NCBI GenBank assembly: GCA_016280895.1
Contig: JAEEHM010000063.1
Span: 5,392 to 69,391 of the forward strand
Length of the DNA: 64,000 nucleotides
Direction of reading: 5' to 3'
Source of the DNA: Bacillota bacterium
GTDB taxonomy: Bacteria; Bacillota_I; Bacilli_A; ML615J-28; CAG-698
In this document: piece by piece, positions 5,621 through 55,027 of the stretch
Position numbering within the stretch: the stretch's first letter is position 1
How the letters are laid out: every line of letters begins with the position of its first letter
Notes under the pieces: model-generated
Seen by the model: only the letters and a program-made list of their open reading frames with translations
Told to the model about the DNA's origin: nothing
Database searches by the model: none
Made by a program: the position numbers and the translations under genes

Positions 5621-5663
5621 TAAAAATGTGATATAATTATTATATAAGAAAAGGAGAAATATT

Positions 5664-8268: not shown

Positions 8269-8303
8269 GTATACATATTTTTACATTCAAAACTATTATT
8301 TTG

Positions 8304-8312
8304 TGGTATAAT
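8304..8312 (+). promoter_or_regulatory. Extended -10 promoter element (TGgTATAAT) for the cobamide cluster
   Basis: TGGTATAAT sits 22 nt upstream of the ATG at 8334. The 80-nt leader is too short for a cobalamin riboswitch. Confidence 0.45.
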
Positions 8313-8333
8313 ATTAATATTAGAGGATACAAA

Positions 8334-9092: not shown

Positions 9093-9093
9093 T

Positions 9094-10195: not shown

Positions 10196-10732
10196 ATGAT
10201 AGTATTAGTAAGTGGCGGAGTCAAAAATGGAAAATCAACATATGCTGAAGAATTATGCTTGAAGCTTGCAAATGGGAATAAGCATTATTATTTAGCAACT
10301 ATGCTTCCATATGATGATGAAGATAGAAAAAGAGTGAAGAGACATCAAGAAAATAGAAAAGATAAAAACTTTGACACAATTGAAATTGCGTATGATATCA
10401 GCAAAGTTTTATCAATTAGTGATACTAATAGTACATATTTACTTGATAGTTTGACTGCACTTGTTTTAAATGAAATGTTTAAATATGAAAATAAACTATC
10501 AAATGATGAATTAACAAATAAAATCAACAATGATCTTGATGAACTATGTAAGAATGTAGATAATATCGTTATTGTCACTGATTATATATTTTCAGATGCC
10601 ATATATGTTAGTCAGTTCACTGAAGATTATTTGAAAATATTTGGAAGTGTTTCTTGCCACTTAGCGCAAATATCTGATTGTGTCATTGAATGTGTTTTAG
10701 GATGTCACAAATTTATAAAGGGGAAGATATAA
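10196..10732 (+). CDS. cobU: Adenosylcobinamide kinase / adenosylcobinamide-phosphate guanylyltransferase
   Basis: P-loop 'VSGGVKNGKST'. His-containing middle region 'KRVKRHQENR'. CobU-like C-terminus. Confidence 0.85.
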   Translation: MIVLVSGGVKNGKSTYAEELCLKLANGNKHYYLATMLPYDDEDRKRVKRHQENRKDKNFDTIEIAYDISKVLSISDTNSTYLLDSLTALVLNEMFKYENKLSNDELTNKINNDLDELCKNVDNIVIVTDYIFSDAIYVSQFTEDYLKIFGSVSCHLAQISDCVIECVLGCHKFIKGKI

Positions 10733-10733
10733 T

Positions 10734-11495
10734 ATGAAAAAATTATTTCATGCATTCTTTATGAGCTTAAGCTCTTTTACAAGAATTCCACCCTTATATA
10801 GAGGATGGGATGAAGAAGCAAAGAAATATATGCCACTGATGCTACCATTTGTGGGAGCAATTATCGGTGGATTATATTTCTTACTTGCATATTTATTACA
10901 TTTAACACAATTACCTAATATGTTAATTGCGTTATGCTTATTATTATTCCCTTATTTAATAACAGGCCTAATGCATATGGACGGTTTTTGTGATGTAGTT
11001 GATGCTAAAAATTCATATCGTAGCTTAGAAGAAAAAATAAGAATATTAAAGGATCCTCACATTGGTTCATTTGGCGTTCTATATGCAATATTCTTAATTC
11101 TTATCCATTTTGTGTTACTTTCAGTATTAGATGCAGAAACAAATTATTTATTCTTAATATTTATACCAATTACATCTAGAATAATGTCAGCATTATCACT
11201 TACATTATTTAAGAAAATATCGGTATCTGAGTATAATACAGAAGAAAACAAAAGCTTTAAAACATTTAAAATAATATATTTCATTATTTTATTAATTGCA
11301 GTACTTGCTATCCAATTTATTTTTACTAAATTATACGTGATTGTATCAGCAAGTATTATTGTTCTACATTTACTTGCAACATTAATCGCAAATCACGCAT
11401 TTAAAGGAATAAATGGTGATGTATCAGGATACGCAATTTCTATATCAGAAGCACTATCTTTAATAAGTTTAGTAATAATGCAGGTGATTATATGA
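10734..11495 (+). CDS. cobS: Adenosylcobinamide-GDP ribazoletransferase (cobalamin synthase)
   Basis: Polytopic membrane protein with the 'MHMDGFCDVVDA' CobS motif. Confidence 0.8.
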   Translation: MKKLFHAFFMSLSSFTRIPPLYRGWDEEAKKYMPLMLPFVGAIIGGLYFLLAYLLHLTQLPNMLIALCLLLFPYLITGLMHMDGFCDVVDAKNSYRSLEEKIRILKDPHIGSFGVLYAIFLILIHFVLLSVLDAETNYLFLIFIPITSRIMSALSLTLFKKISVSEYNTEENKSFKTFKIIYFIILLIAVLAIQFIFTKLYVIVSASIIVLHLLATLIANHAFKGINGDVSGYAISISEALSLISLVIMQVII

Positions 11496-11827
11496 TATTA
11501 ATTATTGGTGGCGCATATCAAGGTAAATTAGCATATGCGAAAGAAACATACAATTTAAAGGATGAAGACATTTGTGATGTAAAAGAAGGTCTTGATTTAC
11601 AAAAGAAATGTTTGTATCACGGAGAATATTTAGAATCAATTGATGATATTTTAGATGATTTAAAAGATAAGATTATCATTTTTGAAGATATTTTTTGTGG
11701 GCTTGTTCCAATTGATAAAGAGCTTAGATTGAATAGAGAAAAGAAAGCAATAATTGCAAGTGCATTAGCAAAACAAGCTGATAAGGTAATAAGAATTTAC
11801 TTATCAATTCCTGAGGTGTTAAAATGA
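11492..11827 (+). CDS. Miniature CobU-like protein (N- and C-terminal CobU segments only; degenerate P-loop)
   Basis: 'MILIIGGAYQGKLAYAKE' parallels the CobU P-loop but lacks the Ser/Thr after Lys. The C-terminus 'IFCGLVPIDKELRLNREKKAIIASALAKQADKVIRIYLS' parallels the CobU C-terminus. About 70 central residues, including the guanylyl-His region, are absent. 4-nt overlaps with cobS and cobC. Confidence 0.5.
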   Translation: MILIIGGAYQGKLAYAKETYNLKDEDICDVKEGLDLQKKCLYHGEYLESIDDILDDLKDKIIIFEDIFCGLVPIDKELRLNREKKAIIASALAKQADKVIRIYLSIPEVLK

Positions 11828-12402
11828 AAAGAGTATTTTTAATTAGGCATGGAGAAACCATGGCTAATATCAAACATCAATATTGTGGTTCATCTGATTT
11901 GAGTTTATCAGATGAAGGAAAAGAAAAATTAAAAGACTTGATCTCTTTATATGATGATGTATCAAAGGGTTCTATCTTTATTACATCAGGGATGAAGCGA
12001 GCAAATGAATCACTTAATATACTATTTGGTGATGTTAAAAAAGAAGAATATCCAGGATTAAAAGAAATGGACTTTGGTCCATTTGAACTTAAAACATATG
12101 AAGAATTAAAAGATGATAAGGAATATCAGCTTTGGATACAAGATACTTTCAACAACAAAATAAAAGGTGGAGAAAGTTTTGCAATTCAAAGAAAAAGAGT
12201 CTTATCCGCTTATGATGAGATTATTCAAAAATACAAGAACATTGATAAAGATGTGATTATTCTTGCTCATGGTGGCACAATCTTTCACATCATTGATAAT
12301 TTATTTAAAGAGGGAAAATATGTATATGAAATTCAACCTGCATCAGGACATGCATATGTAATTGATTATACAAAAGAAAAAATATTTTACGAAAAGAGAT
12401 AA
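11824..12402 (+). CDS. cobC: Alpha-ribazole phosphatase (histidine phosphatase family)
   Basis: 'LIRHGET' catalytic RHG motif, and position in the cob operon. Confidence 0.65.
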   Translation: MKRVFLIRHGETMANIKHQYCGSSDLSLSDEGKEKLKDLISLYDDVSKGSIFITSGMKRANESLNILFGDVKKEEYPGLKEMDFGPFELKTYEELKDDKEYQLWIQDTFNNKIKGGESFAIQRKRVLSAYDEIIQKYKNIDKDVIILAHGGTIFHIIDNLFKEGKYVYEIQPASGHAYVIDYTKEKIFYEKR

Positions 12403-12409
12403 AGAACAT

Positions 12410-14194
12410 ATGAAAAAATTATTATTTTCCTTAATTATATTTATTGTTGTTTTTATGTTTGGCTGTAATAATAATAAAACATGTACAATAGATGCAGAAA
12501 ATGTTGACGTATTAGTTGGAGAAAGTTATAAACTTTCCTTAAACACAAATGTGAAAAATCCCCATTTTGTGTATGAAATAGATAATAATATCATTGAAAT
12601 AAAAGATGATGTAATCTACGCAAAAGAAATAGGAATCGCAAATGTAGATGTATCTGTGAAGAATCACGAAGGCAAAGCATCATTTGTGGTAAGAGTATGT
12701 CAAGAAGGACTTACAATATTTGGTTTACATGAACAAGTAATTTTAGAACACCAACAATTAGATTTAGTAAGATTTGGTGTTGATGAGGAAGAGCATATTA
12801 CTTGGAGAAGTAGTAATATTGATGTGGCACGTGTTTCAAATGGTGAGGTTATTCCTAATGGTTTAGGAAAAACTACTGTCACTGCAAAGACTGATATTTA
12901 TTCAGCGACATTTGAACTTGAAATTATTCGCCCAATGCCAAGTGATGTAGAAACAAAGACTGAACTTAGATTTGAAGAATCTTCAAAATATAGTATTGAA
13001 TATAATGTGTTACCAGAATATGCTTTACAAGATGTTAAAATTATTTCATCTAATGATAATTTAATTGTGAATGATGATAACACAATCCTTGCAAACAAAA
13101 AGGGTAGTGCTACATTATCTATTTCCCCTTTAAGCAATGATTCAATTGTGAAAGTAGTAAATGTTGAAATATTTGAAAATAAAGCTCCTGTATTTGAATA
13201 TACAGATGATTATCAAGAAGAATTAGAAATTAATTATAATGATAAAGAAGCACTACTAACAGGTATTAAAGCTATTGATAATGTTGATGGTGATATTACA
13301 GATAAAATCGAATTTGATAATAATCTTATTTGTACATATGGTCGTCAAGAAATAACATTAAAGGTAAAAGATAATAGTGGTAATGTTAGTACAATAAATA
13401 GAATCGTCGATGTAAAATGGAATTACCATACTAAATTTATTGGCCATAGTGGTTCATATTATGGAGTTCCTAATACTGAGGCTGCTTTCTTATATGCTGC
13501 TAAGAACTTACATTATCAAGCATTAGAGTGTGATTTACAAGTTACAAAAGATGGTGTTTATGTAACCAACCATGATTCATTTATTGGTGATTTTGTGATT
13601 AGTGAACATACATATGCTGAACTTCAAGAAATTACCTTGACACGTACCAATTCTGGTTATATTAAATCCTTAGGTCTTGATACAACAGAAAAATACGAAA
13701 GTAAGGTATGTACCTTAGAACGTTATTTAGAAATCTGCAAAACATATGGTTGTGAAGCAGTTATAGAAATAAAAGGATCATCACCTGGACTTTCTAGTTC
13801 AAGTCAAGCAGGAATGCAAAGATTAGTTGATTTTGTGAAAGAAAAAGGAATGTGGGATGACACAATCTTTTTAACATCAACTGTTGCTTGTTTAAAATGG
13901 CTTAGAAATAATGGCTATAATGATGTAAGATGTCAATATTTAGTTAGTTCATGTGAAAGCCAAGATGTATTAAATACATGTATTGAATACAATTTTGATC
14001 TTAGTACTAATGTAACATATGGTGGACCTAATAGTGATGAGTGGCTACAAAAATACCATGATGCTGGTCTTGAAATATCTGTTTGGACTTTTGATATTTA
14101 CACAAAATATGAAGTAGGACAAGCATGGATTGACAAGGGTGTTGAATATATTACCTGTGATTGGTATGTAATGGAAGAAATGAATTTAAAATAA
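12410..14194 (+). CDS. Surface lipoprotein with three Big_2 Ig-like domains, a DUF5011-like Ig domain and a C-terminal glycerophosphodiester phosphodiesterase (GDPD) domain
   Basis: Lipobox 'VFMFGC'. Big_2-like repeats. GDPD motifs 'FIGHSGSYYGVPNTEAAF...ECDLQVTKDGVYVTNHD'. Start moved to ATG 12410. Confidence 0.7.
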   Translation: MKKLLFSLIIFIVVFMFGCNNNKTCTIDAENVDVLVGESYKLSLNTNVKNPHFVYEIDNNIIEIKDDVIYAKEIGIANVDVSVKNHEGKASFVVRVCQEGLTIFGLHEQVILEHQQLDLVRFGVDEEEHITWRSSNIDVARVSNGEVIPNGLGKTTVTAKTDIYSATFELEIIRPMPSDVETKTELRFEESSKYSIEYNVLPEYALQDVKIISSNDNLIVNDDNTILANKKGSATLSISPLSNDSIVKVVNVEIFENKAPVFEYTDDYQEELEINYNDKEALLTGIKAIDNVDGDITDKIEFDNNLICTYGRQEITLKVKDNSGNVSTINRIVDVKWNYHTKFIGHSGSYYGVPNTEAAFLYAAKNLHYQALECDLQVTKDGVYVTNHDSFIGDFVISEHTYAELQEITLTRTNSGYIKSLGLDTTEKYESKVCTLERYLEICKTYGCEAVIEIKGSSPGLSSSSQAGMQRLVDFVKEKGMWDDTIFLTSTVACLKWLRNNGYNDVRCQYLVSSCESQDVLNTCIEYNFDLSTNVTYGGPNSDEWLQKYHDAGLEISVWTFDIYTKYEVGQAWIDKGVEYITCDWYVMEEMNLK

Positions 14195-34404: not shown

Positions 34405-36651
34405 CTACTTATATACAGGACGAATTACAAGATCGCCTGTGATATATTTTCCATTATCTGTATAATACAAGAAATCAGCATCACTGATATTTGGAAGTTC
34501 AATACTAGCACCAAATGGAAGTTTAGTAGTAGAAGCAATACTTCCATCCTTATTAAGGATTGTTACTGTGAATAATTTTGCTTCTGTTAATTCACTAATC
34601 TTATTACCCGCGAATTCATAAATAAGAATAGCATCACCAACATCAACACTTCCATCCTTATTTAAATCTAATAATGTTTTTTCATTATTCTTGAATTGAT
34701 ATGATGCTTGAATTGATTTAAATAATGCTTTAACATCTTCATCATTAATGCTACCATCATAATTAGCATCACCAGCAAGTAGATAAATAGTAGTCTTTTC
34801 AAATACAATATTTCCACTTTCATTTAATGCTTGAATCTTGTATGTAGAATTTAAATTAGTGCTAGCTTTATTGATTTCATATTTTTGATTAGAAGAAGAG
34901 ATTTCTTCAACTAATGTATCATCTTGATAAATCTTGTATTTCTTAACTACATCATTCTTTAATTCTTGGTTCCAAGATAATACTAATTTATCATTATTAG
35001 GACTAGCTTTGAAAGAATCAAATGTGCCATAATCACCATAAGTACCAAATGTGTAATCAGCATTTTTAACTGTTCCATCAACATAATCAATAACTAACTT
35101 ATAATTATATGTTGTATTAGGATTTAAGTTTTCGACTGTTAAGAAAGATGTACCATATTTTGCAGGATATTCAACTGCAATAATATTGTTGCTATCATCA
35201 TATAATCTAATCTTACTAATGTATTCAGCATATGCTGGAGAAAAGTCAATATAAGTTTTTGTACCATTATTTGATGCTTTTAAAGTATCAAGAATAGAAT
35301 CTTTCTTATCTGCCCAATTTACTTGACGTTTTGCTTTTATTTCATAAGTGTCTTTAACATCACCATTTGTGTCAAATAATTCACCCTTAATTCCATTTGG
35401 AGTAACTGTATATCTTGTACAACCACTATAATTAGCAAGTCTATTTGGATCATCAGCTACATCATCAATACGAATTGCGTAGTATTCAGGATCTTTACGA
35501 TCAGTAATAGTACGATATCTATCACCAATTTGTGGACAACCTACATACATTGTACCTTGATTATCTTCATCATAGATTTTTCCTTCATAGATGAATTTAC
35601 TACGATAATATACATGGTGGTCACCAGCTAAAGCTAAATCTACACCATATCTATCAAATAATTGATACCATTGATTATAGTTTGAAGTATATGGACCAGA
35701 ATGTTCACCAGTTAATGCGTTCATCCAAGGATAGTGCTCCATAACGATTAAATATTGGAATCTACCTTCGTTTTCACTAACTATTTTTCCAAACCATTCT
35801 TTTTGAGCTGCTAAAGTATGAGAATAACCAGCAGCAAGTGAGTCCAACATTACAAACATAACACTGTTGTAAATGAACCAATAAGAACTATCTAGTGGAT
35901 TTCCAATACCATTATCTGGATGTGTAAATACTGATTCAAAGAATCTGTTGTCAATATTTACACTTGAATCTGGATATTGATTATGACTACCATAATAGTC
36001 ATGGTTACCAGTAGTAGAAGCAAATACCTTACTTGAGAAGAAATTAATCTTTGAGTTCATAACTTGATAATTATCATATGAACCACCATAACTTACGTTA
36101 TCACCACTTGATACAACTAAGTCAAAATTGAAATTTGCTTTTTCTAATTGACTAACAAACTGATTTACATATGTATAACGAGTTTGACAAGAATCAACCT
36201 TATAAGTATGGAAATCACCAATCCATAAGAAGTTAAAGTTTCCAGCAGTACCTGCTGTCTTACAAGTATAAGCCTTTGATGTTGTAGTGCCACACTTAAT
36301 ACGATAACGATATCTTGTATCAGGGATTAAATCTTTTATTGATACTTTAAATTCATAAAATGATATTTTATCATATTCGTAAGAAGTATTATCATAAACA
36401 CCACTTGCTTTTATTTCAATTGCGTTTTTGAAGGTAGTATCAGAATCTAATGTCCAATAAAGAGTACCTTCTGGATAATTACTATGCCATGCTACCATTA
36501 ATTCAGTAGAAGCATCTTCGCCAGCCCATGTCCATACCATTTCCACAGGAGCAATAGCTGCATTGACCTTCGCACTAATAGTAATTAGAAATGCAATTAA
36601 AATGAATGAAAGATATATAAAGATTTTCTTTATATATGTAATTTTTTTCAT
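34405..36651 (-). CDS. Secreted purple-acid-phosphatase-like metallophosphoesterase with FN3-like domains and a dockerin-like (type I) Ca-binding module
   Basis: Signal peptide. PAP motifs 'IGDFH', 'SGDNVSYGG', 'GNHDYYG', 'VMEHYP', 'GDHHVYY'. Dockerin duplicate 'GDANYDGSINDEDVKALF' / 'DLNKDGSVDVGDAILI'. Confidence 0.75.
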   Translation of the reverse strand: MKKITYIKKIFIYLSFILIAFLITISAKVNAAIAPVEMVWTWAGEDASTELMVAWHSNYPEGTLYWTLDSDTTFKNAIEIKASGVYDNTSYEYDKISFYEFKVSIKDLIPDTRYRYRIKCGTTTSKAYTCKTAGTAGNFNFLWIGDFHTYKVDSCQTRYTYVNQFVSQLEKANFNFDLVVSSGDNVSYGGSYDNYQVMNSKINFFSSKVFASTTGNHDYYGSHNQYPDSSVNIDNRFFESVFTHPDNGIGNPLDSSYWFIYNSVMFVMLDSLAAGYSHTLAAQKEWFGKIVSENEGRFQYLIVMEHYPWMNALTGEHSGPYTSNYNQWYQLFDRYGVDLALAGDHHVYYRSKFIYEGKIYDEDNQGTMYVGCPQIGDRYRTITDRKDPEYYAIRIDDVADDPNRLANYSGCTRYTVTPNGIKGELFDTNGDVKDTYEIKAKRQVNWADKKDSILDTLKASNNGTKTYIDFSPAYAEYISKIRLYDDSNNIIAVEYPAKYGTSFLTVENLNPNTTYNYKLVIDYVDGTVKNADYTFGTYGDYGTFDSFKASPNNDKLVLSWNQELKNDVVKKYKIYQDDTLVEEISSSNQKYEINKASTNLNSTYKIQALNESGNIVFEKTTIYLLAGDANYDGSINDEDVKALFKSIQASYQFKNNEKTLLDLNKDGSVDVGDAILIYEFAGNKISELTEAKLFTVTILNKDGSIASTTKLPFGASIELPNISDADFLYYTDNGKYITGDLVIRPVYK

Positions 36652-39779: not shown

Positions 39780-40421
39780 TTATTGTTTTTTATATTTAAT
39801 TGCGTTTAAGATATTAAACACAATTGTAATTATTACTGTCACTAAAGCAACAATAATAAGTTTAATACTAAACTTATTTTCAAAAAGTACTGAAATAAAA
39901 CTAATTCCATAATTAAGGATAAATGCATAAAAGATAAATGCAAATATGATAATTGTACAAGCAAGAACTTTATTTAAAATTTTGTACTTGCTTAAATATA
40001 AAGCATAAAAGCTACCAATTGAGAAACATGCAATATGAATTAAGCCATTCACAATTAATAAAACTAATAATGAACTTGTTGCTACATATTGAACAATAGC
40101 ATTTTGTGCTATGAATAATAATTCAACAAAGCAAACATTTATTAGATTAAAGATTAATGATGATAGCCAGAATGTATGTTTATCATGCTTTAGTGAATCA
40201 TATGATCTACCTACTACAGTGAAATTATAATAACCATAGAAGAAGGAATATACAAATTCAATTAAGAAATATGATACAAAAGTTGTAATAACTAGAGCTC
40301 TAAAATCAGGAATTACTTTCGGAATAAGTTCTAATATTACACAAACTACACAAAATACTAAATTAAGTAGAAATGGTAATAGACAAGACTTCAATTGAAG
40401 TTTTATTGTTTGTAGTAACAT
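39780..40421 (-). CDS. Polytopic membrane protein (ABC-2-type permease-like, about 6 TM)
   Basis: 213 aa, highly hydrophobic. Its RBS AAAGGAGA is embedded in the last codons of the upstream ATPase-like gene, indicating translational coupling. Confidence 0.5.
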   Translation of the reverse strand: MLLQTIKLQLKSCLLPFLLNLVFCVVCVILELIPKVIPDFRALVITTFVSYFLIEFVYSFFYGYYNFTVVGRSYDSLKHDKHTFWLSSLIFNLINVCFVELLFIAQNAIVQYVATSSLLVLLIVNGLIHIACFSIGSFYALYLSKYKILNKVLACTIIIFAFIFYAFILNYGISFISVLFENKFSIKLIIVALVTVIITIVFNILNAIKYKKQ

Positions 40422-40422
40422 A

Positions 40423-41307
40423 TTACATTTTCTCCTTTATTTCTCTTAAATTGATTAAATAAATGAAGATGTTGTGAACAGGAACTTCAGATATTTTAAT
40501 TAAGTATTTTTGGAACTTTCTTATTTCGTCCTTTGAAAGCTTTTGGTGAACACAAACTGTTAATGTTTTTCCTCTTTCTTCAACTCCAAGCATTTTTACA
40601 CCTGCAAGTAAGGATTTTAATACTTCGGTTTTTCCACTTAGATAACGGAAATTTGCTTTTATTTCTTCCATTGTGAAATGTGCAAATAAACTTCCCTTAT
40701 CAAAGAATAATACTTTATCAATTAAATATGCGATTTCATCTACAAAAGTAGTAGAAATGATAAAAGTACGTGGATATATTTCATGATGCTTGTATAAGAA
40801 GTTAAAATAATCATATCTATCTTTAATATCAGCCTCAGATAGAGGATTCTCAAAGATAGTTACATTAGCTCTACTTGCAAGTCCTAAAATACCAATGAAG
40901 ATTGATTTTTTGGATTTATTTAAAGAACTATATGTAGTTTTTAATTCAATACCAAAATGTTTGATTAATTCATATGCATAAGCAGTATCCCATTTAGGAT
41001 AAAAATCAGACATAATCTTAAATATTTGGCTGATCTTCATAGTAAGTGGGAAGGTAGTATCTTTCGCAATAAAACAAATTCTTTCATTCATTTCATTGTT
41101 GCCGAAAAGAAGCTCTCCATCAATCCATACATTTCCTTCATCAGCCTTATTCTTAGCACAAATAAGATTTAGAAGTTCATGTTGATAATATTCATTCTTT
41201 TCAACAAGTGCATATATTTGATTATCTAAAAAATTGTAGGAAAAGTTTTTAATGATATTTTCGTTATTACTTTTTTTAACTAAGTTTTCGCAAATTAAAA
41301 CACTCAT
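40423..41307 (-). CDS. ABC-transporter ATP-binding-fold protein with degenerate Walker A, signature and Walker B (predicted non-catalytic)
   Basis: The ABC NBD collinear pattern is retained ('...WIDGELL...', 'LNKSKKSIFIGILGLASRANVTIFENPLSEAD'). The Walker A position reads 'EKNEYYQHE'. The LSGGQ position reads 'LNKSK'. The Walker B position reads 'IFENP'. Confidence 0.5.
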   Translation of the reverse strand: MSVLICENLVKKSNNENIIKNFSYNFLDNQIYALVEKNEYYQHELLNLICAKNKADEGNVWIDGELLFGNNEMNERICFIAKDTTFPLTMKISQIFKIMSDFYPKWDTAYAYELIKHFGIELKTTYSSLNKSKKSIFIGILGLASRANVTIFENPLSEADIKDRYDYFNFLYKHHEIYPRTFIISTTFVDEIAYLIDKVLFFDKGSLFAHFTMEEIKANFRYLSGKTEVLKSLLAGVKMLGVEERGKTLTVCVHQKLSKDEIRKFQKYLIKISEVPVHNIFIYLINLREIKEKM

Positions 41308-44683: not shown

Positions 44684-44822
44684 AAAAAGTATAAATAATT
44701 ATTAAAAAAATGCTAATTTTGTCGCAAAATAATTAAAATAATGATTGAAAAAAAAGCAATTTTTATGTATAATATATATGTTGACAAAAAAATACGTTAT
44801 ATAATTTTAAGGAGAGATAAAG

Positions 44823-47800
44823 ATGAAAAGTAAAATATTATTGAAACGTACTTTGCCTATTATTATCGCATTATTTGTGATAGTAGTGGTAGCCCTTGTA
44901 GCTACAGTGGTAACTTTAGATAAAAAGACACCTAGCTTATCAAAGGCATTAGGAGAAGAAAACTATTTAACATACACAAATAATGGTGTTACTATCTCCA
45001 TGACAAATAATGATGTATATGACTTATTACGTGATACAAGTTATGGTGCATCATCAACTGTCACTCAATTAGTTCGTATGATCGATGAAGGTCTATTAAC
45101 TAATGGAGAAAAGAATTATTTAAATTCTGTTGATAATGAAAAGGTAAGAGAAAGACTTGAATATGCAATTCTTGGCTATGAATTTGCTGATTATCAAAAA
45201 GCAAATAAAACAAGCTTTGAACTTGCAGCTAAAAAAGCAAACAAGACATTCGATGAATATCTTGCTGACAAAATTGCAGATCTTATCAAAGAATTTAGTG
45301 ATAATTTCTTAACTGCAAATGGTATCAAAGTAGAAGCTGACGATATTACATTCGATAGCACTAAGATTACTTGCAAAACTACTGCTGATGTTTTTAAATA
45401 TTATGCATTAGAAGAAGCTAAATATTTATATGCTAGAGATTATTTAGAAAAGACATATTCTGAAGATTTAAAAGCATATGCTGAATATTTAGAAGCTAAA
45501 GAAGCATATGATAAATATACAGCTGCTCTTGCTAGATATGAAGCTGACTTAGCTAAATGGAAGGAAGCAAACAAAAAGACTCGTGGTGATAAACCAGTTA
45601 AGAATGATTACATTTCTTTATACACTGTAAGAGAAGAACCAAAAGAAGTTAGTGCTCCTGCTATTACTGAAACTACAGTTTCTAACAAATATGCTAGCAA
45701 CAATGTAGATAAATTCTGGGCTGTTGTTATTAATTATTCTTCAGTAGCTGCTGCTAAAACAGCATTAAGTCAAAATGGTTATATCTTTGAAGATAATAAA
45801 TTTAAAACAAGTGCTGGTGTAGAATTAACAGATGATGAAGTAGTTCAAATGTACATTAAGCTTTATAATCAATATTATCAAAACTTAGGTAAAGATGCAT
45901 TAACTACTGCTGCATTCACTCCTGATTGGACTGATGAAGATAGTGAATTCTATTTCACTGCATCTGATTTATTATCTCGTGGTATTTACTCTAAGAATTC
46001 TACTAACAATGTGTATAATTATGAAAGTGGTTATGCTTATAATGACAAATTAACTTCTTGCTTATACTTAGTTGTTGCTAGAAATAAGGCTAATACTTGG
46101 GATGAATATCTAAAAGCACAAGATAAGAAATATTATGAAACTGAATTTTATACTTCAGTACTTGCTGAATTATTAGATGATGCTACAAATGCAACATTTA
46201 TTAACAAAGCACTTGCTACTTTAAGAGCAGATTCTGATTTATTAATTTATGATACAGTTTTAGAACAACTTTATATGGCTGCATATGAATCAGATTATAA
46301 AGCTACTAAGAAGTCTTCTTCAAGTGCTGTTGCATCTTATAAGGTAAATGGTAAGAAGTATGAAATTAGTGCTGATGATTTGTTCAAAGCACTTGCTAAT
46401 ACACAATATGGCGTTTCATCTTTCATGTATAAATATCAATACAATTGGATGTTCTTAGAAGCTACTGATAAAGATGGTAACTTATTAAATAAATATGTTG
46501 ATTATAAAGCATATTTAGAAGGCACATCATACAAGAAAGCATCTAAGGATGAAACAATGTATAAAGATGCTAAAGCATATGTTGACAACTTAAAGACTAA
46601 CTTCAAGGCTAATGCTTATGCTAATGAAGATGGTTCTGGTTACAACAAGAAATATGGTTGGGAAGCATTCATTCGTGATTATTATTATGATAATTACAAT
46701 GTTGAATTAAAGAATGAAGATGATTTAATGGTCTTCTATGTATATCAAAAATTAATGGATGAATACCAAGCATCAGTTACAAAGATTACTTTAGATACAT
46801 GGGAAAATGTATATAAGATTTATATGGCTAAAACTGCTAGTGAATACATGAGTATTTCAGCAGAAGAATTATACATCAAATTATTTGATGCTAAAGGTAG
46901 TAAGGTTGATCCTATTAATTGGACAGCTGAACAAGTTGCAAAAGCAAAAGCTTTATATGATGAAGTATTATCTGCATTAACAAAGATTCAAGAAAGTGAA
47001 ATTTCTGCTTTCTTAAGCGGTTTGGAAACTGCATTTGATAATGCTCCTAAGGCTATTGATGGTGCTTACACTGGTGATTATGCATACAATTATGTTTATA
47101 ATGTAGGCGATGGAACACAAATTACAATCAATGTTTCTGAATATAAATCATATGGCTTTGATGTAACATCTACATCTGCAACATTCACTAATACAAGCGG
47201 TGATGCTTACTTAAAATATGCTGCACGTCAAGTTTGGAAGAGCTTAATGGGCGAATTAATTAATGGTAAAGCTGTATCTGAACTTGTTGTTTATGATACA
47301 ACATTCACTCCAAAAGATTATTATGGCATTGGTAATGGTAATTACTTAGCTGCTTCTGAAGGTTTCGTAGTATTAGCATTTACAAGTGCAAACTACTCTT
47401 CATATTTCAAGACAGTTGGTACAACATCAGCTTCATCTGAAGCAAAGACGAGAATCCATGCTTTAATGGCTTCTTATGAAGAATTACATGCTGGTGATGC
47501 TGGCTTTGAATCATTCGAAAAATTATATGCTGAATGGGTTAAGGCTGATGATAAGACTGCTAGTGAAGCTAAGATTTTAGATGTATTTAAGACTAAATTA
47601 GCTCTTGATGATGTAAGTGCATTTACAGATGTTGAAGATTTCTTCACTACATATGTAAATGATAGAATCGCATTTATTGCATTCCCTGAACTTCAATATG
47701 TATTAATGTATCTATACGATCAATCAAAGAAAAACGAAGATGATTATGTATCACTTAGTGATTTATATAGTGATTATAAAGATGCACTAAAAGATAATGA

Positions 47801-48422
47801 AGGCTTAGATGCTGCAAAAGAAGCAATTATGAAGATTGTTGATAAATATATTAATGATTCTTCATTAAATGTTGAATTCCCAACATTTGATGCATTCTTA
47901 CCTTACTTAAAGAATTATGCTGATTCTGATACATCTGCTTATTATAAAGCAAGTGTAACAAATTGGTTCACAACTTATTCTTCAAGTAATTCTACATTAG
48001 TTTATGGCAATTTTGCATCAACAACTTATGCTAATAGAGAAATGTTTAAGACATTACTTGCTAACTTAAATGCTAATTTCCAAGCAAGTGAAACAGTTAA
48101 AGATGTTATGAATAAATTAGTTGAAACATCAATTGATAATGCTACAAGTTCATTAACTTATTTAGCATTCACAAATGGTGATAAAGCTGCAGTTGAAAGC
48201 TTATTAAATGCCGTTCTTGCAATTAAAGATTTCGACTTAAGCGATGAAAATGTATTAGATGTATTATTTACTTATGGTAATGAGTACAGTGCTGAAAAAA
48301 CAACTTTCACAGCAGTTATGGGTGCTTTAAGCACATATGCAAAAGCTCAATATAATGCTTTAAATGCAGAAGATAAAGCAGAACTTGCTGATCTTGCTAC
48401 AGCTGCTGGTTTAGTTGATTAA
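44823..48422 (+). CDS. Giant (1199 aa) N-terminally membrane-anchored extracytoplasmic protein, paralog 1; SurA_N/PpiD-like region after the TM. Function unknown.
   Basis: Short cytoplasmic N-terminus, one TM ('LPIIIALFVIVVVALVATVVTL'), then 'NGVTISMTNNDVYDLLRDTSYGASSTVTQLVRMIDEGLL' (SurA_N-like). Ala/Tyr/Lys/Asp-rich. RBS AAGGAGAG. Confidence 0.7.
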   Translation: MKSKILLKRTLPIIIALFVIVVVALVATVVTLDKKTPSLSKALGEENYLTYTNNGVTISMTNNDVYDLLRDTSYGASSTVTQLVRMIDEGLLTNGEKNYLNSVDNEKVRERLEYAILGYEFADYQKANKTSFELAAKKANKTFDEYLADKIADLIKEFSDNFLTANGIKVEADDITFDSTKITCKTTADVFKYYALEEAKYLYARDYLEKTYSEDLKAYAEYLEAKEAYDKYTAALARYEADLAKWKEANKKTRGDKPVKNDYISLYTVREEPKEVSAPAITETTVSNKYASNNVDKFWAVVINYSSVAAAKTALSQNGYIFEDNKFKTSAGVELTDDEVVQMYIKLYNQYYQNLGKDALTTAAFTPDWTDEDSEFYFTASDLLSRGIYSKNSTNNVYNYESGYAYNDKLTSCLYLVVARNKANTWDEYLKAQDKKYYETEFYTSVLAELLDDATNATFINKALATLRADSDLLIYDTVLEQLYMAAYESDYKATKKSSSSAVASYKVNGKKYEISADDLFKALANTQYGVSSFMYKYQYNWMFLEATDKDGNLLNKYVDYKAYLEGTSYKKASKDETMYKDAKAYVDNLKTNFKANAYANEDGSGYNKKYGWEAFIRDYYYDNYNVELKNEDDLMVFYVYQKLMDEYQASVTKITLDTWENVYKIYMAKTASEYMSISAEELYIKLFDAKGSKVDPINWTAEQVAKAKALYDEVLSALTKIQESEISAFLSGLETAFDNAPKAIDGAYTGDYAYNYVYNVGDGTQITINVSEYKSYGFDVTSTSATFTNTSGDAYLKYAARQVWKSLMGELINGKAVSELVVYDTTFTPKDYYGIGNGNYLAASEGFVVLAFTSANYSSYFKTVGTTSASSEAKTRIHALMASYEELHAGDAGFESFEKLYAEWVKADDKTASEAKILDVFKTKLALDDVSAFTDVEDFFTTYVNDRIAFIAFPELQYVLMYLYDQSKKNEDDYVSLSDLYSDYKDALKDNEGLDAAKEAIMKIVDKYINDSSLNVEFPTFDAFLPYLKNYADSDTSAYYKASVTNWFTTYSSSNSTLVYGNFASTTYANREMFKTLLANLNANFQASETVKDVMNKLVETSIDNATSSLTYLAFTNGDKAAVESLLNAVLAIKDFDLSDENVLDVLFTYGNEYSAEKTTFTAVMGALSTYAKAQYNALNAEDKAELADLATAAGLVD

Positions 48423-48434
48423 GGAGTGATAGAT

Positions 48435-51400
48435 ATGAATAGTAAATCAATATTTAAACGTATCTTACCAATATTAATTGCATTAGTAGTCATTTTAATT
48501 GCTGCTATCGTTGGCGCAATTGTGACTAGTGCTAAGAAAGTACCTGGCTTTTCTGATAAAACTTATGGTAAAGAAGCATTCATTACATATACAACAGCTG
48601 ATGGAACTGAAATTAAATTAAGTAGAAATGAAGTATATAATGCTTTAAGAGGAACATCTTCTGAACAAAGTGTTATTACAAGTACTACTGTAAATGAAAT
48701 TCTTAATTTAGTTGATGCTGATTTACTTGCTGATTATGTAAGCAATGTTAATGAAAATGATGTATTTGAATTAATCGCAAAAGCTGTTTTCTCTTCTACA
48801 TTAGATTCTTATATCAAAACAAATGAAGATACTTTCAAAGTAGAAGCACATAAAGAGGGCAAAGCATACCGTACATATCTAAACGAAAAGATTGATGAAA
48901 AAATCAAAGAATTCGTAGATTCATTAAAATATAGCTATGGTTTCGAAGGTGCTGTATCTGAATTCTCTTATAAGAATGATAGTAATGAATATTATTATGT
49001 TCAAGAAAATGGTGCAGATAAATTAGATGATGATGGTGAAAAGATTTACCAATTAAAGGTAGCTACAAATTCTAAGGTTTATGCTTATTATGCATTAGAA
49101 CAAGCTAGAACTGATTATGCTAAAAAATTAATCAAAGAAGAATATGAAGAAGATTTCAAAGCTTATCTTCAATATTTAGAAGATTTAGAAGCATACAATG
49201 ATTATCTAGAAGCAGTTAGTGATTATGAAGAAGCTTTAGCTGATTGGAAGAACACTAAGGATGGTTCAAAACCTAAGAAGAGTGATTACTACACAAGCAA
49301 GGTAAGTGAACCTGCAGTAGTTGAAGAACCTTTAAATGGTGCTTTAGATGAAGATGCAATCAAAAAGCTTTATGAAGAAGATAATTATGCTAAATTCTGG
49401 GCAATTATCACAAGCTTTGATTCACAAGCAAAAGCTGAAGAAGCATTATTACAATATGGTGTTGTAATTGCTGAAAATGCTAGTGGTGATAATAGATGGT
49501 TCCACTATGGTGTAACAGATTTTGCTGGTGCTAGTGCTGAAGATAAAGCATTAATCGCTGCTTATAATTTCACTACTAAGGGTGATACTACTGTCATTAC
49601 TGATGATGATTATTATAATTTATTAACTACAGATGAAGAATTATACAACAAAGATGCTGCTAAAACTTCAACTGAAAAGACTGGTTTAGTTCTTGCAACA
49701 AAGGAAAACCCAGATTCAAGAACTGGTGCTTATGAATTAACAGAAGCAGAAGTTAAGGATATTATTGTTAAATTATATAATCAAAATAATCAATATGATG
49801 CAAGCAAACAATTAACAAATGCTGATTATGATCCAAGTGCAACTGATGCCACTTATGATGAAAATAGTAAGTTATATTACACTGAATCTAAATTAACATC
49901 ATTAGGTTTATATTCTAAGGGAACAAGCTCTAATAAATTCTATAAATTCTCTGATTCTTCAACATTTGAAAATGCTGAAATTTACACAAATGCTATTATT
50001 TCATCTAACAGCAAATATTATATCTATTTAATTTTAGATAAAAAAGATGATGTTGAAGATTGGGATGATTATCTAGATGGTAAGAAGTATTATGAATCTC
50101 AAATTTACCTTGATAATAAAGATGAATTATTAGAAGATCAAGCTACTGCTACTTATACTAAGAAAGCTATTGCTAAATTAAGATTAGCAAACAACATCAA
50201 ATTCTATGATGAAATCTTAGAAGCTAATTATATGGCTAATTATACTTCTGATTATAAAGCTAATAAGAAGTCAAGCAAGACTGTTTTAGCTTCATATGAA
50301 GTAAATGGTACTAAGAAAGAAATCACAGTTGATGCTTTATGGGCTAAACTTGCTCCTTATTATGGAGTTTATGCTACAGTTGACCTAATCCAATATGAAT
50401 GGGTATTCTTAGAAGCAGCTGATGCTGATGGTAAATTATTCAATCAATATGTTGATTATAATAAATATTTAAGTGGTAAGAAGTTATCTAAGTGCATTTT
50501 AGATAATGACAAAGCTAAGAAGATGTATGAAAATGTTAGCAATTATGTTGAAAACGTTAAGTACTATTTCTCAGTTGGTTATTATGAATCATATGGATAT
50601 CCAAGTTCATATGGTTGGAAGAACTTCATTAATGATTATTATGCAACATATTATAATGTAAGATTAAATAATGTAGATGATTTAAAATTATTCTTCATTA
50701 ATCAACAAATCATTACTGAATATAGTAACTATGTTTCTAAAGTTACAGCTGAAAATTGGGAAAAAGCTTATTTAACATATGCTGGTAAGACATTAAGTGA
50801 ATATATCAATACAAAAGGTATTCATTTATTAATCTCTCTTCCAGATGTTGAAAAGAACGAAAAGAACAATTCAAGTTCTAACTTCTTAGATCCTACTAAA
50901 TGGACTGATGCACAACTTGCTGCTGCAGAAGAATTATATGATGCAGTTCTTGCATTACTTGCACAAGTTGATGAAAGTGAAATTTCAACAGTATTAAATG
51001 GAATTGTTACTGCATTTGATAATGCTCCACTTCCACTTACTGATGGCACTACTCCAAATATAAGCTATACTAAGGAAACATTAGGCGGAACTGAAGTTGT
51101 TGATTATCTATTTGATTATAAATATGAATACTATAAAGATGGTGCTCTTGCTCCACTTGCAAGTATTGATGTTGCTAAATATAAAGCAATGGGCTTCAAA
51201 TTAACTTGTGAAGATTTAACAGTTACAACTGGTACAATGGTTTCAGAATTTGAAGATGCTGTTCGTCAAATTTGGAATAGTCAATTAGATAAATTAGTTG
51301 TTGATGGAAGCAATAGTGATGTTGTTATCTATGATCATACATTTACAGCTCCTGAATACAAGAACTATAATGAAGAAACAAGTGCTGAATCTGTTGTTAA

Positions 51401-52214
51401 CAACAATGGTACTAATACATATTTAGCTACTACATTTGGTCTTCATGTATACGTAAATCAATCTTCTGATTTAAGTGCTTACTTTACTACAAATGCTGAT
51501 GGTGATAAGGTATTTACTGAAATTCCTGACATCAAATATGTTCAAATGTATGTATATGATAAGAACGAAGCAAATGAAGAAGATTATGTAGCACTTGCAA
51601 CTTTATATAAAGATTATAAAGAAGCAAAAGAAGATAATGATGAAAAGAGAACTGCTGACTTAAAAGCAAAGATTGAAGCAGCAAATGAAAAATTAGGCTT
51701 TGGCTTATCATTTGATGAATTCTATGCTTTACTTGAAGAATATGCTGGCGATAATGCAAGCTATGTTAGCACTCAACTTTCAACATACTTCACAGTTTAT
51801 AGCCAAGCATCACAAACTTCAAATGCAAGTTATTCAATGGTATTTGGTGATTATGTAAGCTCTACATATTATCATTTATGTTACATGAGTGACTTCTTAG
51901 ATAAGATTAATGCTTCTAAAGTTAGCCTTGCTGATGGTGATGAATTCAAGTCATTACTTAAAGATTATGTTGGCTACTTCAAAGATACATATTATAAATC
52001 ATTTGCGTCAGCAAATTATTTAGATGGTAACGCTGAAGGCTTAGAAGGATTATTAGATGCTTTAGCATGTGTTAAGGGCGTAACAGCTTATGACAATGTG
52101 GCAGGAAGCGCTATGACTGCACTTAAGAATTTTGCAACTAGTGCATACAATGCATTATCAGCTGAAGATCAAGCTAAGTTAGATGCAAAAGCTACTGCTG
52201 CAGGAATTAAATAA
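48435..52214 (+). CDS. Giant (about 1259 aa) N-terminally membrane-anchored extracytoplasmic protein, paralog 2
   Basis: Collinear homology with the upstream gene, for example 'KFWAIITSFDSQAKAEEAL' vs 'KFWAVVINYSSVAAAKTAL', and 'YTSDYKANKKSSKTVLASYEVNGTKKEITVDAL' vs 'YESDYKATKKSSSSAVASYKVNGKKYEISADDL'. Start at ATG 48435, 8 nt after AAGGAG. Confidence 0.7.
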   Translation: MNSKSIFKRILPILIALVVILIAAIVGAIVTSAKKVPGFSDKTYGKEAFITYTTADGTEIKLSRNEVYNALRGTSSEQSVITSTTVNEILNLVDADLLADYVSNVNENDVFELIAKAVFSSTLDSYIKTNEDTFKVEAHKEGKAYRTYLNEKIDEKIKEFVDSLKYSYGFEGAVSEFSYKNDSNEYYYVQENGADKLDDDGEKIYQLKVATNSKVYAYYALEQARTDYAKKLIKEEYEEDFKAYLQYLEDLEAYNDYLEAVSDYEEALADWKNTKDGSKPKKSDYYTSKVSEPAVVEEPLNGALDEDAIKKLYEEDNYAKFWAIITSFDSQAKAEEALLQYGVVIAENASGDNRWFHYGVTDFAGASAEDKALIAAYNFTTKGDTTVITDDDYYNLLTTDEELYNKDAAKTSTEKTGLVLATKENPDSRTGAYELTEAEVKDIIVKLYNQNNQYDASKQLTNADYDPSATDATYDENSKLYYTESKLTSLGLYSKGTSSNKFYKFSDSSTFENAEIYTNAIISSNSKYYIYLILDKKDDVEDWDDYLDGKKYYESQIYLDNKDELLEDQATATYTKKAIAKLRLANNIKFYDEILEANYMANYTSDYKANKKSSKTVLASYEVNGTKKEITVDALWAKLAPYYGVYATVDLIQYEWVFLEAADADGKLFNQYVDYNKYLSGKKLSKCILDNDKAKKMYENVSNYVENVKYYFSVGYYESYGYPSSYGWKNFINDYYATYYNVRLNNVDDLKLFFINQQIITEYSNYVSKVTAENWEKAYLTYAGKTLSEYINTKGIHLLISLPDVEKNEKNNSSSNFLDPTKWTDAQLAAAEELYDAVLALLAQVDESEISTVLNGIVTAFDNAPLPLTDGTTPNISYTKETLGGTEVVDYLFDYKYEYYKDGALAPLASIDVAKYKAMGFKLTCEDLTVTTGTMVSEFEDAVRQIWNSQLDKLVVDGSNSDVVIYDHTFTAPEYKNYNEETSAESVVNNNGTNTYLATTFGLHVYVNQSSDLSAYFTTNADGDKVFTEIPDIKYVQMYVYDKNEANEEDYVALATLYKDYKEAKEDNDEKRTADLKAKIEAANEKLGFGLSFDEFYALLEEYAGDNASYVSTQLSTYFTVYSQASQTSNASYSMVFGDYVSSTYYHLCYMSDFLDKINASKVSLADGDEFKSLLKDYVGYFKDTYYKSFASANYLDGNAEGLEGLLDALACVKGVTAYDNVAGSAMTALKNFATSAYNALSAEDQAKLDAKATAAGIK

Positions 52215-52219
52215 TAAAA

Positions 52220-52279
52220 ATAGACTAAATCAAAAGATAATTCTTTAAAGATTATTCTTAATGATTTAGTCTTTTTTTA
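52220..52279 (+). terminator. Strong rho-independent terminator ending the giant-paralog operon
   Basis: 11-bp outer stem agactaaatca / tgatttagtct with an inner hairpin, then TTTTTTT. Confidence 0.75.
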
Positions 52280-52313
52280 AGATTTTATGGTATAATAAGT
52301 CAAGAGGTGGAAA

Positions 52314-53419: not shown

Positions 53420-53450
53420 CAAAAGCACCTCATTTGAGGTGCTTTATTCT
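53420..53450. terminator. Bidirectional terminator
   Basis: aaagcacctc-attt-gaggtgcttt followed by ATT; convergent genes. Confidence 0.8.
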
Positions 53451-55027
53451 TATAATAAGCCAGATAATGAAATCTTAATATAGCCCTTTGTTGAAGAAGA
53501 ATACAAACCAACTTCTGTAGAAGATGATTTTTCCACTAAAGCATTAAATACAGGACTATCTGTAAGTAATTTAGTAAAATTGAAATTGATTTTCTTATTA
53601 ATACTATCTGCTCCAATCCATTCTTCATCCTTTAGTGCTTCATTTAAGAAATTAAGAATTGCGCTTATTTGATCATCCTTTAAATTGATTTCACCAAGTA
53701 CTACTGATGTAACATCAGTAGATATTTGTAGTCCATCAGAACCACTTGCGTTTGCGACACATTTTAAGGCTATTTGATAACCATTAATATTGACAGTGAT
53801 GATGATTTCTAATTTATCATCACTTATTTTAGCATATATTGATTCTAAATATAAATATGATATTTTATGCTTATCATTTTCAATACGTGAGAAAGCATAA
53901 GAAATACCAATAGCACCAGTAGAGAATAAGATGTTTGTGAAATCATCTTCATAAATCTTAATATCTAAGCTTGGAGATAATAAATCATGAATGCTTGGGC
54001 TTTGTTCAGAAATGATTTCCAACATTGATTTTTGTGGTACTTCTAATATACCATCATATGTTGTGTTAGAATAAATACCAATTGAAGATAAATTTAATTC
54101 TTTGATGAAGTCATATTTTCCTTCTTCATCTTTTTTACTTACATTTTTCCATCCTCTTACTAAATAATCAAAAGTAAGTCCACAATTTTTATAATCAATA
54201 ATATTATTATCAAGTAATGATTCAACATCAGTTTTTACTTTATCATAATCAAATGAATAAGGAATATCATAAAAAGTACTTGAATCATAAGCTAATTTTT
54301 CTAAGTGAGCATCAAGACCTAATTCATGGTTAGAAGATATGATTTTAATTAATTCATTTTCAAAGATAATATCAACTAAGCATGCATATAAATCCTTATT
54401 TGGATCATCTTTCATCATATTCAAGACTGTTTCAGATGCTTGGTCTTTGTTGATGCTGACTTTTAAGTTTTGTAAATCAAGGTCAATAATGATTCCTTTT
54501 TTATCTAAATCTTCTTTAATATCATCTTCATTTAATACACCTTTAGCAAGAGTAGATATTAAGCCTCTTTTCGCATTTAATTTACCTACGCTTGCGTTAT
54601 TGATTTGTAGGTAAATATTATCACCATCATCTTTGAATGTGAAACCACCTTTTAAAGAAGATGGGAAGCCTAAGACCTTGAAATGAATTGATGCTTGCAT
54701 ATTTGCGTTTTCATCTATTTCAAGATTAGCACCTCTAATTGTCATTTTATCTTTAAATGTTTCATTTAAAGTGTTTGTAAGTGCTTGAAGTAAATAATTG
54801 ATCTCGTCTTCACTTAATGATGCATCCACAATTTTAGTTTCTTTTGTGTCTTTTAAAGCGTTTGACGCAATAGAATTTACTTCATAATTTAAATCATTAG
54901 AGTATTCTTTGTATTTGTTGTCCTTATAAGAATTATCATAAATCAATGCAACTACAATACCTAAGATTAATAAAATTATTAAAATAATTATCCCAATTAC
55001 AATAAATAATCTTTTAAAAAGCTTCAT
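53450..55027 (-). CDS. N-terminally membrane-anchored extracytoplasmic protein of unknown function (525 aa)
   Basis: 'LFIVIGIIILIILLILGIVVALI' signal-anchor, then a hydrophilic domain. No recognisable catalytic motifs. Confidence 0.5.
   Translation of the reverse strand: MKLFKRLFIVIGIIILIILLILGIVVALIYDNSYKDNKYKEYSNDLNYEVNSIASNALKDTKETKIVDASLSEDEINYLLQALTNTLNETFKDKMTIRGANLEIDENANMQASIHFKVLGFPSSLKGGFTFKDDGDNIYLQINNASVGKLNAKRGLISTLAKGVLNEDDIKEDLDKKGIIIDLDLQNLKVSINKDQASETVLNMMKDDPNKDLYACLVDIIFENELIKIISSNHELGLDAHLEKLAYDSSTFYDIPYSFDYDKVKTDVESLLDNNIIDYKNCGLTFDYLVRGWKNVSKKDEEGKYDFIKELNLSSIGIYSNTTYDGILEVPQKSMLEIISEQSPSIHDLLSPSLDIKIYEDDFTNILFSTGAIGISYAFSRIENDKHKISYLYLESIYAKISDDKLEIIITVNINGYQIALKCVANASGSDGLQISTDVTSVVLGEINLKDDQISAILNFLNEALKDEEWIGADSINKKINFNFTKLLTDSPVFNALVEKSSSTEVGLYSSSTKGYIKISLSGLL

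Follow-up and report, generated by a model that had tools for sequence, protein, structure and literature searches.

Two adjacent genes, A and B, in the window that we analyzed (the whole stretch of 64,000 nucleotides) probably encode enlarged, double-module members of the PrsA/SurA/PpiD superfamily, which would serve as membrane-anchored extracytoplasmic folding factors. PrsA-type foldases are secretion factors that are essential or relevant to virulence in Gram-positive bacteria, and they serve as drug and vaccine targets and as tools for industrial secretion. The mechanical list of open reading frames placed B at 48426..52214 with a GTG start (1262 aa). The true start of B is the ATG at 48435, giving 1259 aa, since an AAGGAG lies 8 nt upstream of it and the protein collection holds the 1259-aa form only; the gap between A and B is therefore 12 nt. 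Composition-adjusted BLASTP of A against B returned three collinear HSPs that spanned nearly the full length, with E-values of 9e-100 (37% over 618), 5e-49 (35% over 358) and 9e-25 (30% over 277). A and B are true diverged paralogs in the same orientation, as the preliminary description of this DNA had proposed, and all the peptide pairs quoted there were found in the sequence. The features of the locus are collected in Table 1.

Table 1. Features of the A-B locus (positions are those of the window; aa, residues of the respective protein)
Feature	Position	Strand	Remarks
Promoter candidate, sigma-70-like	44745..44773	+	TTGAAA-17 nt-TATAAT; 11/12 positions match; includes TGTATAAT at 44766
Shine-Dalgarno AGGAG of A	44810..44814	+	8 nt 5' of ATG
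Gene A	44823..48422	+	ATG start, 1199 aa; double-module PrsA-like, second parvulin domain without His/Met/Phe/His motif
A TM helix, aa 10-31	44850..44915	+	N-in/C-out signal anchor, no lipobox Cys
A N1, beta-hairpin-helix (aa 47-69) and helical foldase segment	44955..45668	+	60-residue helix aa 189-248; secondary structure of model
A P1, degenerate parvulin-fold domain, aa 283-425	45669..46097	+	no catalytic His
A C1, helices closing module 1, aa 426-487	46098..46283	+	family motif L-R-x-E-x-x-L-x-I-Y-D-x-x-L-E
A N2, second beta-hairpin-helix (aa 502-525) and helical segment	46323..46847	+	secondary structure; hhalign N1 vs N2
A P2, degenerate parvulin-derived domain, aa 676-858	46848..47396	+	E682 for His1, V849 for His2, MVxEF lost
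A C-terminal extension, mostly helical, aa 859-1199	47397..48419	+	low pLDDT; no Pfam or PDB sequence match
Shine-Dalgarno AAGGAG of B	48421..48426	+	overlaps stop codon of A
Gene B	48435..52214	+	1259 aa; double-module PrsA-like, ancestral parvulin motif kept
B TM helix, aa 10-32	48462..48530	+	sole hydrophobic segment
B N1 foldase segment, aa 45-305	48567..49349	+	N1 profile matches B 38-239, E 6.2e-23
B P1, degenerate parvulin-fold domain, aa 306-538	49350..50048	+	fold deduced from the homologous A P1
B C1 helices, aa 539-600	50049..50234	+	A/B alignment
B N2 segment, aa 615-790	50277..50804	+	starts VLASYEVNGTKKEITVDALW
B P2, parvulin domain with insertions, aa 791-1012	50805..51470	+	H797, M935, F939, G1002, H1004
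B C-terminal helical region, aa 1013-1259	51471..52211	+	first helix is the post-parvulin helix
Intrinsic terminator	52215..52280	+	11-bp outer stem AGACUAAAUCA/UGAUUUAGUCU, then U7

The pair had been described as carrying its own promoter region and a strong terminator, and both elements were located. Since promoter-like matches were not enriched over shuffles in the surrounding AT-rich DNA, we regard the promoter as a candidate only. The terminator hairpin folded at -19.5 kcal/mol (z = -5.9); a consensus scan missed it because its stem is AT-rich. An Rfam scan of the window returned zero matches. The single N-terminal TM helix reported earlier for each protein was confirmed, since one hydrophobic segment (residues ~10-32) was found in both A and B with a basic N-tail before it. 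A lipoprotein signal peptide with a lipobox Cys was absent from A and B, in which the 22-residue TM helix contains no Cys. Elsewhere in the family, a classical lipoprotein signal like that of PrsA was detected in 15 of 51 representatives, members that had escaped the preliminary description.

The homology to PrsA was established with family profiles and a structural model. The N1 profile matched residues 38-214 of A with an E-value of 4.6e-30, and its two best hits among PDB sequences were both PrsA: 4wo7 of B. subtilis (E 0.0012), in which the match lies at the start of the mature protein, and 6vj4 (E 0.041). The whole-family profile again gave 4wo7 as its best PDB match. With the P2 family profile, the best matches were PrsA1 (6xd8, E 2.1e-5) and a PpiC-type protein (2m08, E 7.4e-5), with Par14 and Pin1 next. 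The P2 domains of both proteins matched the family parvulin profile, at E 1e-51 for B and, with a profile built without A, at E 5.8e-24 for A. Against PDB sequences the P1 and N2 profiles gave noise only, and we therefore assigned P1 by its fold and N2 by secondary structure and its similarity to N1. Parvulin chaperones were the only structural matches of the first alpha/beta domain (P1 of A), which was modelled with high confidence. N1 and N2 both open with a beta-hairpin-helix, the element that is swapped in PrsA dimers (PMC12524980), and hhalign aligned the two segments at E 5e-4 with a probability of only 31%. The same comparison of P1 with P2 gave no detectable similarity, so there is no sequence evidence for these domains as recent duplicates. 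The C1 helices appear, by sequence inspection, to resemble the helix at the C-terminal end of the PrsA NC domain. B P1 carries an insertion of ~100 aa (aa ~350-440) that is common to the single-copy orthologs.

Curated domain models did not recognize the proteins. None of the Pfam/NCBIfam models (Rotamase, SurA_N and others) reached E = 1 on A or B, and the scans also gave no relevant match for all 13 close homologs, for excised and insertion-trimmed P2 fragments and for the L004 ortholog. Among the 51 family representatives, Rotamase_3 was found in one only, as a weak match (E 0.0038). A full-length profile of the close homologs had zero matches in the PDB, and a Foldseek search of the PDB with the whole A model gave none that was significant, the best being SurA (E 0.77) and LIC12922 (E 1.1). 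The whole-chain A model had a pTM of 0.40, and its inter-domain arrangement is therefore not reliable. The C-terminal extension makes up ~25% of each protein (250-340 residues) and has no family match, so that the outcome which the preliminary description had named as refuting it, a known family covering the full length, did not occur. No domain or fold match was found to a phage tail or host-recognition protein, a polysaccharide lyase, or an S-layer protein or adhesin, and the genes lie in a housekeeping neighbourhood; these assignments were rejected.

The preliminary description reported neither a parvulin nor a catalytic signature, and this is untrue for B. Its P2 domain carries a recognizable motif that is split by insertions, GIH797LLIS ... 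GTM935VSEF939EDA ... FGLH1004VYV. B has an intact parvulin domain, A a degenerate one. Also overlooked were the arrangement of each protein as two PrsA-like modules and the additional, fully degenerate parvulin-fold domain in the N-terminal half of both. The His/Met/Phe/His motif was kept in B and the single-copy orthologs and lost in all nine A-type orthologs (9/9). Across the family, His1 was conserved in 40/51 representatives, Met in 39/51, Phe in 45/51 and His2 in 48/51. Family members do not conserve the Asp/Cys position found in the active sites of parvulins, which leaves the catalytic competence of B uncertain. Despite the loss of its motif, A is under purifying selection: dN/dS was 0.25-0.34 for A and 0.15-0.26 for B, in both cases above the neighbouring genes.

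An exhaustive search with a profile from a 10-sequence alignment uncovered a wider family that the preliminary description had missed, comprising 161 clusters at 50% identity, with 111 representatives at E <= 1e-10 and with position-specific invariant residues. All the relatives came from MAGs of uncultured 'Bacilli bacterium', in which those that are named are labelled 'hypothetical protein', and a GTDB scan yielded only two distant single-copy orthologs. The gene directly followed cca-yhaM in 5/5 relatives examined, within a conserved housekeeping neighbourhood of cca, yhaM, rlmH and uvrB. According to an earlier study, yhaM is the direct neighbour of prsA in L. monocytogenes and in S. aureus, and lies close to it in B. 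subtilis (PMC3921577). No account of giant or double-module PrsA-like proteins turned up in literature searches. The family is unrecognized by current domain libraries, and our assignment offers a concrete annotation for ~160 protein clusters in uncultured Bacilli.

The closest known systems are the PrsA/PpiC lipoproteins of Bacillota (B. subtilis PrsA, 4WO7; E. faecium PpiC, 9IBN; S. pneumoniae PrsA, 5TVL). Like these, A and B are predicted to be extracytoplasmic and membrane-tethered, and have a beta-hairpin-helix and a helical NC foldase domain with an inserted parvulin-type PPIase domain and closing C-terminal helices. B shares the His...MxxxF...GxH parvulin motif, and the gene context next to yhaM and the lipoprotein signal of many family members are also PrsA-like. 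Unlike PrsA, which has one module per chain and forms a homodimer, A and B have two modules per chain and are about four times longer; neither is a single module of ~270-340 aa that curated PrsA, Rotamase or SurA_N models would catch. The first of their parvulin-fold domains has degenerated fully, P2 holds insertions of 50-100 aa, a TM helix replaces the lipid anchor and a long C-terminal region is added. No new kind of system is revealed. The PrsA architecture can evidently be fused into such a double-module chain, switch between lipid and TM anchors, and duplicate into pairs in which the motif survives in just one copy. E. coli SurA (N-P1-P2-C) is a soluble periplasmic chaperone, has ~430 aa and serves the outer-membrane-protein pathway of diderms, whereas A and B are TM-anchored and come from Bacilli; its parvulin domains are consecutive, whereas in A and B a closing helix, followed by a linker and another N-type segment, keeps P1 apart from P2. 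The SurA-like proteins PEB4, HP0175 and LIC12922 are periplasmic, single-module proteins of diderms with 250-310 aa, and share 7-12% sequence identity.

Canonical PrsA works as a homodimer formed by domain swapping, with two NC and two parvulin domains in its bowl. Since this is a dimeric two-module bowl, we infer that one giant chain of A or B could rebuild it as a single-chain pseudo-dimer. From the N-in TM anchor each chain runs through module 1 (a beta-hairpin-helix, the helical NC-type foldase segment, degenerate P1 and closing helices), a short Lys/Ser linker, module 2 (a second beta-hairpin-helix, a helical segment, parvulin P2 and a closing helix) and a long helical tail. Such a bowl may be tethered beside the Sec exit site, where proteins that have just been exported would be held and folded. 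In B, which like the single-copy orthologs keeps the parvulin motif, P2 is predicted to have retained proline binding and PPIase activity. A would be transcribed together with B and is predicted to act as its chaperone-only (pseudo-PPIase) partner or as a specialized paralog. The proteins offer a natural test case of whether a single chain can form the bowl of the PrsA dimer, and a source both of parvulin domains that carry large insertions and of pseudo-PPIases that have lost their activity naturally.

We considered whether A and B could be translocon-associated holdases of the PpiD type, TM-anchored and catalytically irrelevant, that dock on SecYEG or YidC and take the emerging chains, instead of general foldases of the PrsA type that work after translocation. 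E. coli PpiD is anchored in the inner membrane and shares with A and B the single N-terminal TM anchor and the extracytoplasmic body. However, PpiD has one parvulin domain in ~620 aa and no detectable sequence similarity to A and B, whose sequence-level matches are to PrsA; the synteny differs from that of PpiD and is that of prsA; and no YfgM-like partner was seen beside the genes. Many members of the family are lipoproteins, and the strong family-wide conservation of the parvulin motif argues that the motif matters. We find the holdase reading rather unlikely. A PpiD/PrsA-like, duplicated and membrane-anchored chaperone was one of two proposals in the preliminary description and is supported by structure, profiles, synteny and anchor; the other, a novel surface-protein family, is not needed.

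More improbable still is that the two are structural or adhesive envelope proteins (surface layer or scaffold) that recycle parvulin-like and helical modules and have no folding clients. Their very large size, Tyr content (9.0% and 9.5% in the two proteins) and strongly acidic character would fit such a role, as would the long helices, the unmatched C-terminal extension, the raised dN/dS and the Big_2 Ig-like domains in one relative. Against it, no repeats, cell-wall anchor, S-layer-homology or adhesin domains were found, all the structural neighbours are chaperones, the catalytic-type motif is kept in 40-48 of the 51 representatives, and the genes hold a conserved position among housekeeping genes. 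A last possibility is that the resemblance of A to B, for which the preliminary description had itself considered a purely compositional origin, and the PrsA-like matches are both artefacts of proteins rich in Ala, Tyr, Lys and Asp from an AT-rich genome. In its favour are the low G+C content of the window (29%), the skewed amino-acid usage of the two proteins and several marginal E-values among the supporting matches (those of the N1 and whole-family profiles), but this explanation has a negligible chance of being correct: it is refuted by the collinear HSPs of composition-adjusted BLASTP (E 9e-100), by the family search with its invariant residues, and by independent structure-based matches that converge on one superfamily.

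Pairs of the double-module genes in which one copy has an intact and the other a degenerate P2 motif were detected in three lineages, namely A/B here, L009 with a lipoprotein copy and a TM-anchored copy, and L010 with the reciprocal arrangement. We tentatively suggest that a low-GC clade of uncultured Bacilli may have swapped the homodimeric PrsA for a single-chain pseudo-dimer with two modules and a dead first parvulin, which was repeatedly duplicated into pairs of intact-P2 and degenerate-P2 copies; we consider this scenario possible but doubtful. If true, it would suggest that the two copies have to assemble with each other, as an obligatory and asymmetric hetero-assembly, into an extracytoplasmic folding chamber much larger than any known PrsA, SurA or PpiD.

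Composition-adjusted BLASTP of the two giant proteins, A against B, gave collinear matches over nearly the full length (E 9e-100, 5e-49 and 9e-25) at 30-37% identity. The preliminary description had taken the two ORFs for diverged paralogs, and this comparison bears it out since composition is excluded as the cause; the idea that A and B are a compositional artefact was refuted. Both proteins are acidic with ~9% Tyr, and each carries one hydrophobic segment (aa ~10-32) preceded by a basic N-tail. The true start of B is almost certainly the ATG at 48435 because an AAGGAG, overlapping the stop codon of A, lies 8 nt 5' of it and because the only form of B in the public protein collection is that of 1259 aa. 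The terminator hairpin and the 12-nt gap between A and B support a two-gene operon.

Features of the A-B gene pair and of the paralog pairs in two distant relatives
Feature	Position	Remarks
Promoter candidate TTGAAA-17-TATAAT	44745-44773	candidate only, since such sites are as frequent in shuffles
ORF A	44823..48422	1199 aa; co-oriented with B
ORF B	48426..52214	as in the ORF listing, GTG start; co-oriented with A
P1 insertion of B	49482-49754	B aa ~350-440
Terminator hairpin followed by U7	52215-52280	-19.5 kcal/mol, z -5.9; ends the A-B unit
A TM	aa 10-31	single anchor
A N1	aa 45-282	beta-hairpin-helix 47-69; long helix 189-248
A P1	aa 283-425	degenerate parvulin fold
A C1	aa 426-487	closing helices; family motif LRxExxLxIYDxxLE
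A linker	aa 488-500	Lys/Ser-rich
A N2	aa 501-675	beta-hairpin-helix 502-525
A P2	aa 676-858	parvulin-derived
A extension	aa 859-1199	helical, low confidence
L009 family paralogs	3447-6089 and 7001-9445
L010 family paralogs	7001-9664 and 10576-12996

Neither Pfam nor NCBIfam models matched A or B. Despite this silence of the curated models, five independent lines of evidence converge on the PrsA/SurA/PpiD superfamily. The P2 region has the family consensus FSVxGxHLLI ... AFxxAP ... GTFxNGxMVxEFxxAxKxIW ... TxFGYHVYVN, and its profile (31 sequences) matched PrsA1 (6xd8, E 2.1e-5) and a PpiC-type PPIase (7.4e-5) in the PDB, followed by other parvulins, Par14 and Pin1. By these profile matches P2 is a parvulin domain, carrying 50-100 aa of insertions. 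The best PDB match of the N1 profile was B. subtilis PrsA (4wo7, E 0.0012), with a second PrsA (6vj4, E 0.041) behind it; the alignment '...ykvTnkevYeeLkksyGltvlldlidkeLL' falls on the very start of mature PrsA in 4wo7, which also came first with the whole-family profile (E 0.055). A classical lipoprotein signal, such as ...LIACGG or ...VIGCGD, opens the sequence of 15 of 51 family representatives; the anchor of 10 more contains A-V-S-C, and that of A, B and 24 others is a TM helix lacking Cys.

Word-indexed searches returned close relatives only, none of them named or with a Pfam domain. An exhaustive profile search identified 161 cluster representatives at E <= 1e-3 (58 of them at E <= 1e-30), most of which were 800-1100 aa long and matched profile positions ~270-860; those that the sources name are all called 'hypothetical protein [Bacilli bacterium]'. 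The locus order cca - yhaM-like (OB + HD) - giant gene(s) - (beta-lactamase-like) - MBL-fold - rlmH - uvrB is kept even among relatives at just 30-70% identity. In L. monocytogenes and S. aureus, prsA2 and prsA, respectively, adjoin yhaM, and B. subtilis prsA lies near yhaM (PMC3921577); the giant genes occupy exactly this prsA position. The A+B pair is found in closer relatives of the window (loci L001 and L005-L007) and a single copy in more distant genomes (L002/L003, L004 and L008). The L004 MAG (CAZFAM010000001.1), titled 'uncultured Bacteroidales bacterium', has the Bacilli-type cca - yhaM - giant PrsA-like - MBL - rlmH - uvrB block with an ortholog of 1207 aa, and the Bacteroidales label of this bin is probably wrong.

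Each chain looks like two tandem PrsA-type modules. The N1 and N2 sub-alignments matched each other by hhalign with E 5e-4 at a probability of just 31%, and no mutual similarity was detectable between P1 and P2. Since the PrsA dimer forms a bowl of two NC domains and two parvulin domains (PMC12524980), a giant chain of two such modules would naturally be read as a single-chain pseudo-dimer; the structure model had a pTM of 0.40, at which inter-domain geometry is unreliable.

The parvulin motif positions His1, G-x-M-V-x-E-F and G-x-His2 were retained in B (H797, M935, F939 and H1004), in 8/8 further B-type orthologs and in all four single-copy orthologs. In A and in all eight of the other A-type orthologs, which share 60-90% identity with A, His1 is replaced by Glu or Gln and His2 by Val, and MVxEF is lost. 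Family-wide, His1 is conserved in 40, Met in 39, Phe in 45 and His2 in 48 of the 51 representatives, A alone having Val at His2. Because P2 of A still matched a family parvulin profile built without A (E 5.8e-24), it is, as judged from sequence, a decayed parvulin domain and not another domain type. A ~100-aa insertion in the degenerate P1 is common to B and the single-copy orthologs and absent from A, which has ~70 extra residues C-terminal to P2 (aa ~865-935). Purifying selection acts on A (dN/dS 0.25-0.34) and on B (0.15-0.26), less tightly than on the flanking yhaM-like and beta-lactamase-like genes (0.06-0.18). These values are approximate owing to high dS and an AT-rich genome.

A and B would thus be membrane-tethered extracytoplasmic foldases or holdases, and we hold this assignment of superfamily and function with good confidence. 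B would contribute a PPIase-competent P2 and A would be a chaperone-only paralog, although whether B is active and A inactive is an even call. As the genes are co-transcribed, A may also enter a hetero-assembly with B, which we consider doubtful. A PpiD-like holdase docked at the translocon overlaps with this explanation; its sole point in favor is the TM anchor, a type that PpiD shares with A and B. A structural surface protein is unlikely. SurA likewise has two parvulin domains of which the first is inactive, but its domain order and cellular context differ. The nearest known family is PrsA, from which A and B depart in size, the single-module architecture, the lipid anchor and detection by curated models, while homology to PrsA and the likely mode of action are supported. 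Double-module PrsA-like proteins did not turn up in the literature searched. The family does not constitute a new type of system. Its use is in annotation, and it is of moderate interest to specialists in protein folding and secretion.

In the two more distant lineages L009 and L010, the MBL-fold gene lies between two family paralogs, one TM-anchored (~880 aa) and one a lipoprotein (~810 aa), whose P2 parvulin motifs have decayed reciprocally. In L009 the TM copy is intact, and in the lipoprotein copy His1 has become Gln and MVxEF is damaged; L010 shows the reverse, with His1 changed to Gln in the TM copy and the lipoprotein copy intact. Together with A/B this makes three cases of an intact and a degenerate partner, a suggestive but anecdotal pattern. 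A SpoIIID homolog beside the conserved block in distant relatives (L008:1568-1825, L010:1333-1599) points to sporulation in at least some members of this uncultured Bacilli clade.

The remainder of the window is an ordinary housekeeping chromosome (fakA, recG, rqcH, priA, mnmA, recD2). Near A and B, past the beta-lactamase-like gene, 53450-55027 (-) encodes a protein of 525 aa that starts with a TM helix and has no Pfam match; its position is kept in L001, L005 and L007. Two genes without a strong family match at 39780-41307 (-) encode a 294-aa ABC-ATPase-like protein, on whose orthologs Pfam ABC_tran is weak or absent, and a 213-aa polytopic membrane protein; both are kept in every relative, upstream of the Impact_N - cca - yhaM block. 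A 1027-aa protein with a Y_Y_Y domain and an HD-GYP-type HD_5 domain (524-3607, +) is probably a c-di-GMP phosphodiesterase sensor. A purple-acid-phosphatase-like metallophosphoesterase (34405-36651, -; also L001:1-1914) carries a type I dockerin domain, a hint that this organism has a cohesin-dockerin system for surface display.
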